A DNA stretch of 64,000 nucleotides. It comes from Mobula hypostoma (taxonomy: Eukaryota). Shown in pieces: positions 32,025-60,118 of this stretch. The stretch is taken from assembly GCF_963921235.1 (NCBI RefSeq), contig NC_086108.1, positions 38,318,001 to 38,382,000 on the forward strand, given 5' to 3'. The number at the start of each line of letters is the position of its first letter. The first letter of the stretch is position 1. The notes beneath the pieces are model-generated. The model had not been told where the DNA came from and made no database searches. It was given only the letters and a program-made list of their open reading frames with translations. The position numbers were made by a program, and so were the translations under genes.

Positions 32025-33807
32025 TGTCATACGAGGCTGGCTGGGAACGGACCCAAGTGCAAGACAGAGACACTGAAGTACTAGGGACAGGACTAGGATA
32101 CAGGCTGAGGGCAAGGACGTGGATACGAAAACCGGGAACCCGGAACAGGACTGGACAAGAGAGCTAGGAGCCCGGGTTTGGACTCCGAGCCAGAGACTGG
32201 ACAAGGATCCAGTACCTGGGTCTTGCCTCTGGCTCGGACCCCAGAACTAGGCAAGGATGAGGCTTGGCAGGCAGGCAGGATGAGGCTGGAATCTTCTGGC
32301 TTGAGGCTAGAGGCGAGGCTTGGCAGGAGGCTGGAGTCTTCAGGCTTGAGGCTAGAAGCGAGGCTTGGCAGGAGGCTGGAGTCTTCAGGCTTGAGCCCGG
32401 GCTTGGACTCCGAGCCAGACACTGGACAAGGACCCAGTACCTGGGTCTTTCCTCTGGCTCAGACCCCAGAACTAGGCAAGGACGAGGCTTGGCAGGCAGG
32501 CAGGACGAGGCTGGAGTCTTCTGGCTTGAGGCTAGAGGCGAGGCTTGGCAGGAGGCAGGAGGCTGGAGTCTTCAGGCTTGAGCCCGGGCTTGGACTCCAA
32601 GCCAGAGACTGGACAAGGACCCAGTACCTGGGTCTTTCCTCTGGTTCGGACCCCAGAACTAGGCAAGGACAAGGCTTGGCAGGCAGGCAGGACGAGGCTA
32701 GAGTCTTCAGGCTTGAGGCTAGAGGCGAGGCTTGGCAGGAGGCAGGAGACTTGAGGCGAGGCTTGGCAGGAGGCAGGAGACTTGAGGCAAGGCTTGGCAG
32801 AAGGCTGGAGTCTTCAGGCTTGTGGCTAGGCAGGACGCTGGAGTCTTCAGGCTTGAGGCTAGGCAGGACGCTGGAGTCTTCAGGCTTGAGGCTAGGCAGG
32901 ACACTGGAGTCTTCAGGCTTGAGGCTAGGGCAGGAGGCTGGAGTCTTCAGGCTTGAGGCTAGGCAGGAGGCTGGAGTCTTCAGGCTTGAGGCTAGGCAGG
33001 AGGCTGGAGTCTTCAGGCTTGAGGCTAGGCAGGAGGCTGGAGTCTTCAGGCTTGAGGTTAGGCAGGAGGCTGGAGTCTTCAGGCTTGAGGCTAGGCAGGA
33101 GGCTGGAGTCTTCAGGCTTGAGGCTAGAGGCTAGAGACTTGAGGCGAGGCTTGGCAGGAGGCAGGAGGTGGAGTCTTCAGGCTAGAGGCTAGAGACTTGG
33201 CTTGGCAGGAGGAAGGAGACTTGAGGCTGGAGGCTCCTCCTGGGCAGGGCGCGGATCACCACCCAACGGAGGCAAGGGACAGGAAGGGACAGAAGGGACA
33301 GAACCAACCGTAGGTAACAGCAAGACGGCCTGGCTTACCGGACAGAGGCAAGGGACAGGAAGGGACAGAACCAACCGCAGGTAACGGCAAGACGGTCTGG
33401 CTTACCTGGGCGGAGGCAAGGGACAGGAAGGGAGCTAGGTATAGAATGGCTCCAGGACAAGACTGCAGGCGAGATGAGGCGAGAGTTACCAGCAAGACAA
33501 GGCAAGGCTTCAGGCAATGCAAGGCACAACGAGAACTTCAGGCAAGGCGAAAGTTACCGGCAAGACAAGGCAAGGCTTCAGGCAAGGAAACAGAAGGCAG
33601 ACGAAGGGATACAAGGAGTAAGGACAAGAACAATCCAGCAGACACGTCCTGGTCTCTGGAGGCATTTATGCAGCCAGCCCCAACAAGCATCAGCTGCCTC
33701 AATGAGCTCAACAAGAACAGAAACAGGGTAGATAGGAAAAACTGGAGCAAGGGTCGATGGACCGGACCGTGAACCGGAAAACAGACTTCACGGACTGGAC
33801 CATGACA
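32025..33807 (-). mobile_element. Solo LTR (Gypsy-type) with internal tandem-repeat expansion
   Basis: Termini TGTCAT...ATGACA; 5-bp TSD gacat at 32020-32024 and 33808-33812; removal restores the HERO frame; no retroviral ORF; orientation inferred from tgcacttgggtcc near the minus-strand 3' end. Confidence 0.8.
32165..33230. repeat. Minisatellite with 33-bp and 45-bp units and ~190-225 bp higher-order units
   Basis: Unit aggctggagtcttcaggcttgaggctaggcagg repeated about ten times at ~32800-33125; block gagcccgg.ttggactcc recurs near 32168, 32393 and 32580. Confidence 0.9.
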
Positions 33808-35041
33808 GACATGGCTGTACCAACATGGTCTTCTATCAAGGCTGCTCTGGTTTTTCACAGGGTACGAGTTCCCCATGACCATTGTATTAGCCACTGAGAG
33901 GAAAGTTAAAAAGCACATGCGGAGATGGTTGGGGATTCCCCCAAATTTTTCTTCAGTGGGGATCAGATCAGGCCAGCTACAGCTCACATTGTCATCAGCA
34001 GTGGAGGAGTTCAAGGTGGTAAAGTGTAGACTTATGTTAACACTGAGTGGCTCTGAAGACAAGCTAATAAATCAAGCAGGAGTCATAACAAGATTGGGCC
34101 AAAAGTGGTCTGACAACTCAGCCACAGACCAGGCAGTGAGCTCCCTGCAATTGAGAGAGATCATCGACAACGCGTGCTGGGATGGCAAGGCCTCAGCTCT
34201 GCATACTTCCAACAATGGGGGGCGGGGGGCGTGTATGTGCAAGGGATAGGCGTGACATGGTGAAGACAGGTATGAACCACGAGGGCAAAAGGCAGTTATC
34301 GAAGGCAGTGGAGATGGGGTTACATGGTGCCTGGATGAAATGGGATTTTCCCAAGCACAAGATCACTTGGACAGAGCTTTGGAAACTACAGCCCTTCCGC
34401 ATTTCTTTCCTCCTGCAGTCCGTGTACGACACTCTCCCTGCACCATCACAGCTGCACACGTGGGGCCTGAGAGAGAACCCTAACTGCAAGCTTTGTGGTC
34501 AGCAGTGTTCACTGGCACATGTGCTGTCAGGATACAAAACAGCTTTAACACAAGGACAGTATAGGTGGCACCACGACAAGGTCCTGCTGTCCCTTACTGA
34601 CACACTGAATTGGGAGAGGTGTAAAAGGAGACCAGCTGGCAGAGAGATAAACAGGGCAGTCATTTTCATCAAGGAGAGGACCACACCAGTCATATCAAAG
34701 AGGCCTAAATTCAATCTGTGGCAAACTGCCAATTCATGGGAGATGAAGCACCTTCAATTACTCCAAAAGACTGAGGTTTGGTAAAATACTGAAAGGCTTT
34801 TATTCGCTGTACAATACGACCTCCACAGTGAGTGTCTGCCCCCAGACTGAGGGGGAGGGGCAAGGGGAACACCTTTATACAGGACTCTGTGGGAGGAGCC
34901 ACAGGGTCAGTCAGCAGAGGTGTGTGTCCAGACAGGTAACCGAGTTACAACCTATATACATGGTTTACCACATTCACCCCTCCTTTTTTTAAAAAGAGTC
35001 CCGCGGGGTGAAGTGACTGACAATATTTACAGGAAGTATAT

Positions 35042-38000
35042 TTACAGGTCAAGTCTATCAGGCGGTCGAGTCCGTCGCTGTGATCTACATAGCACCGGTG
35101 GTGATTGCACCGGCGATGGCGGTTGTGCTGGCTCTGGCCTGACTTCAGGTGCCAGCACGTTAGGCGTCGGTAATCCCTCGTGCGTGTGCGTCGCGCCCGG
35201 TATGGGAGTGTCGTGTGGTGTCTGTATAGGGTTTGGGGTGCACGGTGTCTCGTAGGTACATACATTGGTGGGTACGGGGTCAATAGTCACCACGGAGTGT
35301 TCAGGGTAGGGGCCCGGTGCTCCTGCGGGCGCCAGGTCGCGGATGGAGACCGTGTCCTCCCGCCCATCAGGTAAAACCACATAGGCATACTGGGGGTTCG
35401 CATGAAGTAAGTGAACCCTCTCGACTATCGGGGAGTATTTATTGCTCCTCGCATGTTTCCGGAGCAGCATTGGCCCTGGGGACATCAGCCAAGTTGGTAG
35501 GGTGGTTCCAGTGGTCGATTTTCTGGGAAAAGAAAAGAGCCGCTCATGAGGGGTGGCATTGGTGGCTGTGCATAACAGGGAGCGGATGGAGTGGAGTGCC
35601 TCGAGAAGGACCTCCTGCCAGCGAGAGACTGGCAGTCCCTTTGACCTGAGGGCTAAGAGTGTGACTTTCCACACTGTGCCATTCTCCTTCTCTACCTGTC
35701 CATTCCCCCGGGGATTATAGCTCGTGGTCCTACTGGTCGCAATTCCCCTAGCCAGTAGATATTGGCGCAGCTCGTCACTCATAAACGAGGACCCTCTGTC
35801 ACTGTGGATATAGCATGGGTATCCGAGCAGAGTGAAGAGCTTGCGCAGGGCTTTTATAACTGACGTGGTAGTGGTGTCGGGGCAGGGGATGGCGAAGGGG
35901 AACCGCGAGTACTCGTCAATTACATTAAGAAAGTACACATTACGGTCGGTGGAGGGAAGGGGACCCTTAAAGTCAACACTCAGTCACTCAAAGGGGCGGG
36001 TGGCCTTGATGAGTGGTGCCTTTTCGGGTCGGTAGAAGTGCGGTTTGCACTCTGCTTAGACCTGGCAGTCCCTGGTCATCATCCTGATCTCCTCAAGGGA
36101 GTAAGGCAGGTTCCGGGCTTTCACGAAGTGGAAAAGCCGGGTGACTCCCGGGTGGCAAAGGTCTACATGTAGGGCGCATAGCCGGTCGATCTGTGCGCTG
36201 GCGCATGTTCCCCGGGATAGGGCACCGGAGGGCTCGTTGAGCTTCCCAGGCCTGTACATGATGTCATAGTTGTAGGTGGAGAGTTCGATACTCCACCTCA
36301 GAGTTTTATCATTTTTGATTTTGCTCCGCTGCTGATTATTAAACATGAATGCAACTGAGCGCTGGTCAGTTAGCAGGGTGAACCTTTTGCCGGCAAGATA
36401 GTGCCTCCAGTGCCTTATAGCTTCTACTATGGCCTGGGCCTCTTTCTCTACCGCAGAGTGCCGAATTTCAGGGCCTTGAAGGGTACGGGAGAAGAACACC
36501 ACTGGTCTTCCTGCCTGGTTGAGGGTAGCAGCCAGCGCAAAGTCGAAGGCGTCACTCTCTACTTGGAAGGGAATGGCCTCATCCACCGCATGCATTGCTG
36601 CTTTGGCAATGTCCCCTTTTATGCGGTTGAAGGCCGCGTGGGCCTCGGCAGACAGGGGGAATGTGGTGGACTTGACCAGGGGGCGGGCCTTGTCTGCATA
36701 GTTAGAGACCCATTGGGCGTAATATGAAAAGAAGCCCAGGCACCTTTTGAGGGCTCTGAGGGTATTGGGAAGAGGGAGTTCCAACAAGGGGTGCATACGG
36801 TCGGGGTCAGGGCCAATGACTCCATTCTCCACGACACACCCAAAGATAGCAAGTCGGGTGGTCCCAAATACACACTTATCCTTGTTATAGGTGAGGTTGA
36901 AAGATTTGGCCGCTTGGAGAAATTTTTGGAGGTTGTTGTCGTGATCCTGCTGGTCGTGACCACAGATGGTGATGTTATCCAGATATGGGAACGAGGCCTT
37001 CAGTTGGCACTGGTCCACCATCTGGTCCATTGACCTCTGGAAGACAGATACACCATTCGTGACACCAAAGGGGATGCGCAGGAATTGATAAAGCCTGCCG
37101 TCCACCTCGAAGGCAGTGTAAGGGCGGTCCTCCCGGCGGATGGGGAGCTGATGGTAAGCAGATTTTAGGTCTATGGTCGAGTACACCTTGTACTGTGCTA
37201 TCTGATTGACCATATCCACGATGCGGGGTAGAGGGTACGCGTCAAGCTGCGTGAACCTATTGATGGTCTGGCTATAGTCCACGACCATCCTATTCTTCTC
37301 CCCGTTCCGAACAACCACCACCTGCGCCCTCCAAGGACTTGTGCTTACCTCAATGACCCCCTCCCTGAGCAGCTGTTGCACCTCCGACTTAATGAAAGCT
37401 CTGTCCCCCGCGCTGTACCTCCTGCTTTTAGTTGCCACAGGTTTACAGTCGGGGGTCAGGTTGGCGAACAGCGTTGGGGGAGGGATCCTGAGGGTGGAGA
37501 GGCCGCAAGTGGTGTCGGTAGTGTGGCAGTTGGCATGATGTTGGGTGGGATGCACGGGTCGGTGTGTGTGTGTGGTCAGTAGTGGGGTACGTGACATATC
37601 TCTACAAAACAGGGGATTTATGACAGTAATTGGCAGGAGGGGCCCATCATACTTCATTGTCACACTTTTCAGGTGGCTCTGGAAGTCCAACCCCAACAGC
37701 ACAGGGGCACACAGTTGAGGCAAGACCAGTAACGTAAAGTCCCGATATTCTGTGCCGTGCACCACTAGTGTCGCTACACAACCCCCCCGGATGTATGTTG
37801 TATGCGACCTGGAGGCCATGGTGACCCTCCGACTTACCGGCCGTATCATGAGTCCATAATGCTACACCGTGGCCAGGTGGATGCCTGTGTCAAACAGGCA
37901 GCTTGTCCTGTGCCCCTCCACCAGGATGTCCATTATTGACCTTGCCAGCTGGTGGGGAGCGCTTTGGTCGAGGGTCACGGAAGCCAGGGTGGGGTCGCTG

Positions 38001-38947
38001 TCTTGGTCCGGCGTGGTGGGGTGGCCCGTGAGCACCCGTTGGTCGTAGGCGGTGGGAGGTGGCGCCGACCAAGATGGCCGCCCCCATGTCTCGCACGTGA
38101 TGGTGGCGTGCAGGGAAGATGGCGGCCTCCATGTCTCGCACGTGGTGGCAGTGTGCAGGGAAGATGGCGACCCCCACATCTCGTACGCGGTGCTGCTCGA
38201 TCCCGCTCACGGTTTTGACTTACAGACCTTGGCGAAGTGGCCCTTCTTTCCGCAGCTGGAGCAGGTAGCTTGTCGGGCCGGGCAGCGTTTCCGGGGGTGC
38301 TTCTCCAGTCCGCAGAAGTAGCACTTCGCGGACTCACGACTGGCAGCAGCCGAGGTCGATTCGCCGGCAGGTTGCGGGGTCTGTGGCACCCACGAGGCCA
38401 TCGGGGGATCGTGTGCCTGGAGAGCCTCGGAGTTATGCAGAGTGGCCTCCAACATATCAGCCAGCTCCATCGCCGAATTTAGGGTAAGATCGGCTTTTTC
38501 CAGCAGCCGCTGGCGCACGTACACTGACCTGGTCCCCGTAACGAAGGCGTCCCTCACTAGGAGCTCTGCATGCTGCGTCGCCGTCAGCTCCTGGCAATTG
38601 CAGGCCCGCATAAGTGTCTGTAGGGCCTGGACGAACTCAGCACTCGATTCCCCGGGGCGTTGTTGCCGTGTCGCTAAACGGTGCCAAGCATAGACGCTGT
38701 TTATCGGCCACAGGTATTGTTTTTTGAGTGCGTTCATTGCGCCGTCATAGTTCGGCTGGTCTCTGATCAGTGAATAGACCCGTGGACTGACCCTGGAGAG
38801 TAGAACTCTGCGTTTCGCTACGGGGTCGGTCGCTTTAATCTCCTCTAGATACGCTTCGAAGCAGGCCAGCCAGAGTTCGAAAGCGTTTCCAGCTTCAGGT
38901 GTTTGCGGATTGAGGTCTAATTTTTCTGGTCTCAGGGCCTGTTCCAT
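35042..38947 (-). pseudogene. Single-frame gag-pol polyprotein with three in-frame stops (38207-38209, 37862-37864, 36056-36058)
   Basis: ORFs starting at 38947, 38179, 37849 and 35938 share one frame; zinc knuckles CYFCGLEKHPRKRC and CSSCGKKGHFAKVC; PR LFDTG; RT IPFG and YLDN; RNase H VESDAF; IN HSDRGSSF and GNGQVE. Confidence 0.9.
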
Positions 38948-38957
38948 GTTTTAAAAC

Positions 38958-38972
38958 GTACAGCGAATAAAA
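38958..38972 (-). promoter_or_regulatory. Non-tRNA primer-binding site complementary to the element's own LTR
   Basis: Minus-strand TTTTATTCGCTGTAC, 1 nt after the 5' LTR end, is the exact reverse complement of LTR GTACAGCGAATAAAA (39028-39042; 34798-34812). Confidence 0.75.
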
Positions 38973-39684
38973 TTGAAGCACCTTCAATTACTCCAAAAGA
39001 CTGAGGTTTGGAAAAATACTGAAAGGCTTTTATTCGCTGTACAATACAACCTCCACAGTGAGTGTCTGCCCCCGGACTGAGGGGGAGGGGCAAGGCGAAC
39101 ACCTTTATACAGGATTCTGTGGGAGGAGCCACAGGGGCAGTCAGTAGAGGGGTGTGTCCAGACAGGTAACCAAGTTACAACATATATATATGGTTTACCA
39201 CAGGAGAGGAGGTTGATGTGGGGAGGAAGTTACAGTTCTCCGAGGTGGTGCAAACCACACTTCAACCGACATTGTACCGTGGTCCACTGAATACAAGAAA
39301 ATCATCCTGGTGGAGCTCTCAGTACCATGGAAGGAAGAACATGAGGAGGCTCATAAGAGGAAGGCCCTGAAGTACCAGTCCTTAGTCCAGGAGTTTACCC
39401 TCATCTATTCTACCAGTTCAGTTTCAGCAGTTTGCCTTCATCTATTCTACCATCTACATTCTCAAAAACTACAAAACACTTAAAGATTAGTTTTGTCACA
39501 TGTACTGTACATCAAAACATACAGTGAAGTGTGTCATTTGCATCAATGATCAACACAGTCCAGGAATGTTCTAGGACCTGCCCACAAATGTCACCATTCT
39601 TCTAGTGCCAACACAGCATGCCCATAACTTACTAACCCTAACCAATACTTGTTAAGCATGATTTCTATTTCATGTGTATTTTTC

Positions 39685-59400: not shown

Positions 59401-59861
59401 AAAAAAGGTTTATGCCTGTGCCAGACTGAGTATATGCTTCTGGAGAGCATGGAGACTGAGAAGTCAAGTAACTGCCTTAAACAAGGGAACTTCAACAAGA
59501 TAAGGGGGCGGTCATTTTAAACTGATGCACAGAATAGGTTTCTTTTCATAAAGTTCAGTGAATATCTGAAATTCTCCATCCAGAGGATGGTGGAAGCTAA
59601 ATTTTTGGAGGTATTTAAAGAAAAGATAGTAATTTATTTTATTATTATTTTTTTAAAATCGAACAACTTGTCAGAACAGCAGATGAAGCTTGGGGAAGGG
59701 TACATTGAATGACAAGGCATATTTGAAGAGCCAATTAGACTTCATCTAATCCTACTTTCCAATTTCTTATGTCTCCCAGTCTGTGGCAAAAGTTACTTCT
59801 CCCTAACGCTGCATGAGGTTATAGTTCTCAGAGCTCATCAAATCAAAATGGTCTCAAGTAA

Positions 59862-60118
59862 CATACATCAAAGTTGCTGGTGAACGCAGCAGGCCAAGCA
59901 GCATCTATAGGAAGAGGTGCAGTCGACGTTTCAGGCCGAGACCCTTCGTCAGGACTAACCGAAGGAAGAGATTCTTCCTTCAGTTAGTCCTGACGAAGGG
60001 TCTCGGCCTGAAACGTCGACTGCACCTCTTCCTATAGATGCTGCTTGGCCTGCTGCGTTCACCAGCAACTTTGATGTATGTTGCTTGAATTTCCAGCATC
60101 TGCAGAATTCCTGTTGTT
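59862..60118. mobile_element. Palindromic PLE-end insertion with a hammerhead ribozyme on each strand
   Basis: 110-bp arms at 59860-59969 and 59973-60082 with one mismatch and a 3-nt loop; TSD tggtctcaagtaa at 59849-59861 and 60119-60131. Confidence 0.9.
59986..60021 (+). ncRNA. Minimal type I hammerhead ribozyme; identical copy on the minus strand at 59921-59956
   Basis: agtc-CTGACGA-agg-gtctcgg-cct-GAAAC-GTC-gact: intact core, GUC cleavage triplet, palindromic ACGU stem III. Confidence 0.85.

Follow-up and report, generated by a model that had tools for sequence, protein, structure and literature searches.

To our knowledge, self-priming of reverse transcription has been proven for the Tf1 retrotransposon only, and is regarded as a trait of the Tf1/sushi chromoviruses and of a few plant lineages. 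In the accessible text of the corresponding reports, the initial 11 bases of Tf1 RNA act as the primer, cut by RNase H (PMC7175516), a copy of the primer site is present on about half of the Tf1 cDNA (PMC11042837), and the Tf1/sushi elements combine a chromodomain with a primer at the 5′ terminus and a structure of three duplexes (bioRxiv 2022.12.06.519325; PMC4600332; PMC5341516). Self-priming has also been predicted for Tcn1 (Gypsy) and for TAR/Houba/Osr-1 (Copia), from a primer site that complements the 5′ LTR (PMC6317226, in the part available).

Here we describe a Gypsy element from the genome of Mobula hypostoma, located in a stretch of 64,000 nucleotides (hereafter the window), which illustrates a real and conserved feature of a widespread animal Gypsy clade, likely self-priming with an internal primer that overlaps the poly(A) signal. 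Tf1 and Tf2 (Schizosaccharomyces pombe), Tj1 and Tosmo1-3, as they appear in the text available on them, share with this element the lack of a tRNA site, a site after the LTR that complements an LTR segment, and flanking helices. In those elements, however, the RNA's first 11 nt serve as the primer and a chromodomain is present, whereas the window element has a pairing segment that ends in the poly(A) hexamer and whose predicted place is 36 nt into the RNA, and no chromodomain was found in it. Tcn1 and TAR/Houba/Osr-1 differ by belonging to fungal and plant lineages, Tcn1 being a chromovirus and TAR a Copia element, and a link to the poly(A) signal is not mentioned in the accessible part of their description (PMC6317226). 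The Mag lineage and the mollusc and annelid clades (A, B, C; MolGy) resemble the element as non-chromoviral animal Gypsy with short LTRs containing AATAAA, as far as their partly available descriptions go (PMC3601003, PMC6238403). Skipper, from Dictyostelium, also has no TGG and an unconventional priming has been proposed for it, but it is a chromovirus and, in the accessible text, its LTR has no complementary region (PMC5006619). The arrangement reported here is undescribed in the available portions of PMC3601003, PMC6934838, PMC2774666, PMC6238403, PMC3587641, PMC12440569 and PMC13524379. A literature search returned no account of self-priming in this clade, though one could still lie in subscription journals, in the texts of Repbase, in supplements on bioRxiv or in some supplementary files.

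Structure and classification of the element

The element lies on the minus strand (34744-39202), as do all the parts described below. Its two LTRs of 229 nt, both TG...CA (5′ LTR, 38974-39202; 3′ LTR, 34744-34972), show 11 differences between them, and the target-site duplication TCTCC flanks the element on both sides (39203-39207 and 34739-34743). A polypurine tract occupies 34973-34990. The gag region (38207-38947), whose ATG stands 10 nt past the primer site, encodes two Cys/His knuckles, a twin arrangement that is a trait of the Mag lineage, and continues in the same frame into protease, reverse transcriptase (RT), RNase H and integrase (35042-38206). In the window copy, the coding region is interrupted by four in-frame stops near 38207, 37862, 36056 and 35984.

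The LTRs, the duplication, the polypurine tract and the order of the enzymatic domains are those of Ty3/Gypsy elements, and among solved structures the RT is closest to Ty3 (E 2e-47), followed by the caulimovirus-type 8r0s (6e-32) and by retroviruses (2e-14 or weaker). The element shares with Tf1/sushi a complement of its own LTR after the 5′ LTR and the lack of a tRNA site. At E values up to 1, no chromodomain was detected in the window integrase or in five long relatives (P0017, P0018, P0022, P0024 and P0027), and the element was not filed in Tf1/sushi, though it likely works like Tf1. A literature search for ‘Selfy’, possibly a group name of Repbase, gave no match. Motif searches for a clade name in the searched supplements of PMC6238403 and PMC8556966 returned nothing, and no reference sequences.

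A primer site complementary to the poly(A)-signal region

The 5′ LTR is followed by an unpaired 1-nt spacer, A (38973), and then, at the position of the primer-binding site, by TTTTATTCGCTGTAC (38958-38972). These 15 nt exactly complement GTACAGCGAATAAAA within the LTR itself (LTR positions 161-175; 39028-39042), as the first-pass annotation of this DNA had reported. Anchored at the LTR end, the best exact complement thus reaches 15 nt, against a maximum of 9 and a mean of 4.7 over 2000 dinucleotide shuffles of the LTR. The pairing segment, predicted to be the 3′ part of a self-primer, does contain the AATAAA that had been noticed in it (39029-39034) and ends in AATAAAA. The absence of a tRNA-type site, also claimed from the outset, was borne out: no TGG follows the LTR, and an Rfam scan of the region gave no tRNA or snRNA family, with three sub-threshold matches to other families (E 1.1-6.6).

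Upstream of the segment, a TATA-like box is predicted at 39104-39109; TATAAA starts at 39109, 31 nt ahead of the A of an Inr-like TCAGT (39076-39080), in agreement with the spacing first proposed, and the predicted transcription start is this A at 39078 (LTR position 125). The leader between this start and the segment, predicted to form the 5′ part of the primer, would measure 36 nt (39043-39078), close to the initial estimate of about 35 nt. The stops of leader copies in aberrant insertions (see below) support the predicted start independently. Downstream of the segment, the remainder of R and U5 (54 nt, 38974-39027) starts with GCC.

Conservation and covariation among copies and families

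The family of the window element (family 1) counts 2109 candidates, and 442 exact normal junctions between LTR and primer site were found in the genome. The complementarity is kept in other copies, one of the checks that had been suggested: among the 58 family-1 loci that best matched the queries, 15 of 15 positions pair in 38, 14 in 14 and 13 in 6. A second family of the same genome (family 2) has arms with letters unlike those of family 1, complementary again, and its 30 best-matching loci pair at 15 of 15 positions in 17 cases, at 14 in 12 and at 13 in one. It also keeps the spacing between TATA box and Inr, with AATAAAG as the box. Against a self-copied primer, 7 of these 30 copies retain a G-U pair that primer copying should tend to erase.

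Metagenomic relatives were taken as the best 80 of 232 loci from a gag alignment, 77 of them testable and 3 having too little upstream DNA. Under one fixed rule (at least 12 of 13 positions paired, starting 1 nt after CA), pairing was found in 49 of the 77 loci, many of which trace to few hosts, against 3 of 1540 shuffles. Another 19 pair at 10 of 13 positions or fewer; two of these are TGG-type outsiders and the rest are truncated, rearranged, decayed or unexplained (L120, L114). The outsiders (L126, L139), recovered by the same gag search, have twin knuckles and a TGG-starting site just upstream of gag; with an RT identity of 26-32%, they are placed apart from the self-complementary clade, a long branch lying between.

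Eighteen families, from this genome and from metagenomic animal DNA, were grouped by eye and represented by one copy each, hand-picked as the best preserved. Cross-family multiple alignment of such short regions was uninformative, and pairing was scored by script. Covariation, another of the suggested checks, is clear among these families: the match of a primer site to its own LTR has a median of 15 nt, and cross-family matches reach at most 9 nt in 306 pairs. The own-LTR match extends over 11-19 nt in 17 of the 18 representatives (8 nt in the last, a decayed copy), and positions 1-13 are paired in 17-18 of the 18 families, with a drop to chance level past position ~16. None of the 18 primer sites starts with TGG, and the distance from site to ATG is 0-26 nt. 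In 17 families an AATAAA-like hexamer closes the segment, and in 13 the next bases are GCC. Matched changes also occur inside families (L065 versus L075; L082 and L132 versus L084; L143 and L170 versus L144). A TATA-like box lies upstream in only 4 of the 18 families, which weighs against the start proposed here. In one family (L105:1290-1372), the segment ends in TTTTGAAGA and the primer site is changed to match, so that pairing is kept with no poly(A) hexamer.

The RTs of these families are ~46-66% identical to that of the window and, in a tree of 33 sequences that includes no named references, the families with enough RT form one clade on a long branch (FastTree support 0.91). The closest named proteins come from rays, namely Mobula hypostoma (90%), Hypanus and Hemitrygon. 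Relatives at 31-46%, compared as proteins alone, occur in catshark, whipworms, anemone, sea cucumber, snail, crustaceans, scorpion and butterfly. The viral contigs searched contained no relative. Contigs of presumed RNA runs span the element; they reveal neither starts and ends nor the strand, and were left unused.

Predicted folding and upstream motifs

The early suggestion that R, U5 and the primer site fold into one long hairpin is supported by a z-score of -4.4, none of 200 shuffles being equally stable. In this predicted fold, the 54 nt downstream of the segment form a stem stacked on the primer duplex. A helix of at least 4 bp beginning at the first base past the segment was found in 15 of 18 families, compared with a mean of 7.7 and a maximum of 15 in 500 shuffles, and with 6-9 families when the start position was slid, two registers of this test being set by hand. 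No conserved third duplex, as in the ‘pretzel’ of Tf1/sushi, was seen in the folds; the helix conserved in these 15 families is the one stacked 3′ of the segment. The masking of the 5′ poly(A) signal by the pairing, likewise put forward at first, stands as a folding prediction: the hexamer has an unpaired probability of 0.00-0.01 in the 5′ context, whereas it is predicted to be mostly unpaired in the 3′ LTR (0.95-0.99 for its four central bases).

Two motifs were observed upstream of the segment. A pyrimidine tract ending in YAG, resembling a splice or trans-splice acceptor, lies within 60 nt of it in 9 of 18 families (e.g. L099, L127, L128 and L092; 39077-39093 in the window), against 1 on the reverse strand and a mean of 3.7 in shuffles, 0.6% of which reach 9, under a rule set after seeing the data. 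The tract coincides with the Inr in the ray families. With an internal primer, a spliced leader would be harmless. L079, L083 and L113 each have a YY1-like CCGCCAT motif 26-42 nt ahead of the pairing segment; that of L083 comes after TATA- and Inr-like motifs, which suggests an upstream start in distant families too.

Aberrant insertions carrying copies of the leader

About 80 insertions were found in which the LTR end and the primer site run on into the complement of the LTR leader, many of them with target-site duplications; in this integrated DNA, the start of the minus strand is joined to the leader of the element itself. For family 1, a pattern search of the genome gave 28 exact loci with such extended junctions, and 55 when two mismatches were allowed. 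For family 2, the junction pattern had 29 matches, of which 28 were examined (26 extended, 2 normal) and one, a known normal copy, was omitted. These loci include palindromic insertions of ~405 bp with two U3 ends and target-site duplications (L171-L198, L217-L243, L199-L206, L254-L273), and shorter insertions bounded by U5 at one end and U3 at the other (L200, L206, L233, L234, L259, L265, L270, L271). The inverted arm reaches the LTR start in 50 of the 55 family-1 loci, and at least 7 family-1 loci run on into the polypurine tract and pol. Of the 27 family-1 palindromes whose two ends are complete and which do not run on, 24 are flanked by target-site duplications, and two of the three exceptions are 3′ LTRs; such duplications are also present at the ends of 6 of 8 inspected long rearranged elements. 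Given these duplications, the palindromic and the rearranged insertions are reverse-transcription products inserted by integrase.

Eleven arms have a clear internal stop: five of these stops lie 29-39 nt away from the junction and six 50-60 nt away, with the predicted cap at 51. Expressed in nt from the junction, these stops are, in family 1, L172 50, L218 50, L187 52, L185 55 and L228 31, and, in family 2, L199 55, L255 60, L201 33, L203 39, L205 29 and L254 31. Six of the 11 sit from 1 nt inside to 9 nt beyond the predicted start, and all 11 fall between 9 nt before and 20 nt after it. From 61 nt up to the last 18 nt of an arm there is no stop, and the search patterns are blind to stops shorter than 19-24 nt. 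The ambiguous L261, together with L221 and L243, which are deletions in full arms, was left out of this count. The second cluster and its sharp edge, small as the numbers are, argue against simple fall-off, which would leave a tail. Both these leader copies and the promoter spacing suggest that transcription starts 36 nt upstream of the segment, and the inverted insertions are best read as fossil copies of a leader primer of ~51 nt. Against this reading, the internal stops are few and sited at microhomologies, and the 50 family-1 products that pass the predicted cap to the LTR start, some entering the polypurine tract and pol, need an added template switch.

The inverted arm differs in haplotype from the forward LTR in at least L217, L226, L191, L237, L258, L268 and L272, which rules out a snap-back origin at these loci. 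Simple DNA snap-back and slippage of host replication were each rejected as the sole source of the palindromes, given these haplotype differences and the target-site duplications that most of them carry. In L258, U5, primer site and inverted arm are of one haplotype and the forward U3, leader and segment of another, a pattern that fits two co-packaged RNAs provided that the start of strong-stop DNA lies downstream of the segment. LTRs broken at the predicted cut, counted over the whole genome, showed no enrichment (4, versus 2 and 4 at two control positions). In 11 of the loci with a truncated or folded forward LTR, the break lies at LTR 171-177, at microhomologies, which offers a hint only.

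Proposed mechanism and alternative explanations

That the element primes itself in some form appears highly probable to us, and the form that we retain as probable has minus-strand DNA primed by the capped leader of the element itself, ~51 nt long, following a predicted cut immediately 3′ of AAUAAAA. Transcription would begin near 39078, and nucleotides 37-51 of the RNA would pair with the primer site, as predicted by folding and backed by covariation, with a short GCC/GGY helix stacking on the duplex; the 5′ hexamer would thereby be buried and that of the 3′ LTR left open. By analogy with Tf1, RNase H would then cut between AAUAAAA and GCC, freeing a 3′-OH opposite the spacer A and the end of the LTR. 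The strong-stop DNA would comprise LTR positions 176-229 only and would jump by homology to the short stretch of R that separates the hexamer from the poly(A) site, a transfer that would explain why the hexamer stands at the very end of the primer. Plus-strand synthesis would finally copy the primer, thereby keeping site and segment complementary, the unpaired leader being normally trimmed beforehand; when left untrimmed, it could be copied up to the cap, with a possible switch to a second RNA that would yield the inverted insertions.

The best surviving alternative, which we hold to be unlikely, takes as primer the 3′ LTR copy of the segment, at the 3′ end of the same or of a second genomic RNA trimmed to AAUAAAA. 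It accounts directly for the products that run to the LTR start and, at the family-1 loci mentioned above, into the polypurine tract and pol, as well as for arms derived from different molecules, but it does not predict stops at the cap, where 6 of the 11 internal stops sit. Moreover, the 5′ segment, 55 nt from the site, should win the pairing, and L258 requires a strong-stop DNA that ends 3′ of the segment.

Less plausible still is the plain geometry of Tf1, with a transcript starting at the pairing segment and its first 11-19 nt as the primer. The TATA box and Inr keep their spacing 36-39 nt upstream in both ray families and a cluster of internal stops lies 50-60 nt from the junction, both at odds with such a start, although stops under 19-24 nt would be invisible to the search. 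The complement of 11-19 nt with its fairly sharp end does resemble a cap-terminal primer; most invertebrate families are also devoid of a TATA box, and the start site proposed here is a prediction.

We consider it very improbable that masking of the 5′ poly(A) signal is all that the duplex does, priming being achieved by other means such as a host RNA or protein. The hexamer ending the segment in 17 of 18 families and its predicted burial at the 5′ end only would suit such a role, and snap-back of plus-strand DNA could give palindromes whatever the primer. Masking, however, needs no complement starting exactly 1 nt past CA in every family, and L105 pairs without a hexamer. The 18 families have different sites, none of them starting with TGG, so that no shared host primer is possible; the space ahead of the ATG amounts to only 0-26 nt, and Rfam gave no tRNA or snRNA match. 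Finally, template switching clearly occurs at this repeat, yet the idea that the repeat is a functionless by-product of it can practically be set aside, contradicted as it is by the fixed register and matched changes across families with such divergent RTs.

Returning to priming by the capped leader, we favor, with more reserve, a broader reading in which a pan-animal Gypsy clade gained self-priming with an internal primer independently of Tf1/sushi, the same duplex silencing the poly(A) signal of the 5′ LTR and, after cleavage at AAUAAAA/GCC, acting as the primer. The leader upstream of it, not needed in the copied genome, could then be long, spliced or trans-spliced, and fossils would map the RNA start. 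If so, a second clade, widespread in animals and primed internally, would represent a repeated escape from host tRNAs, priming would be tied to the control of polyadenylation, and elements that pipelines score as having no primer-binding site would find an explanation. Genomic fossils of primer copying would also map the RNA start without RNA data. Through the inverted insertions, intermediates of reverse transcription can be read in the genome, and such insertions can be looked for wherever a genome holds many copies; moreover, the cleavage step is directly testable on an RNA of ~120 nt.

Other features of the window

The element splits a plus-strand reading frame (34155-34743 and 39203-39483), the halves of which seem to resemble that end of a non-LTR retrotransposon which carries the zinc knuckle and the restriction-like endonuclease. 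A GC-rich tandem array with units of ~33 and ~45 nt occupies 32168-33232, and near-perfect inverted repeats of a short interspersed repeat are found at 378-1149 and 59854-60088, one pair being 3 nt apart.
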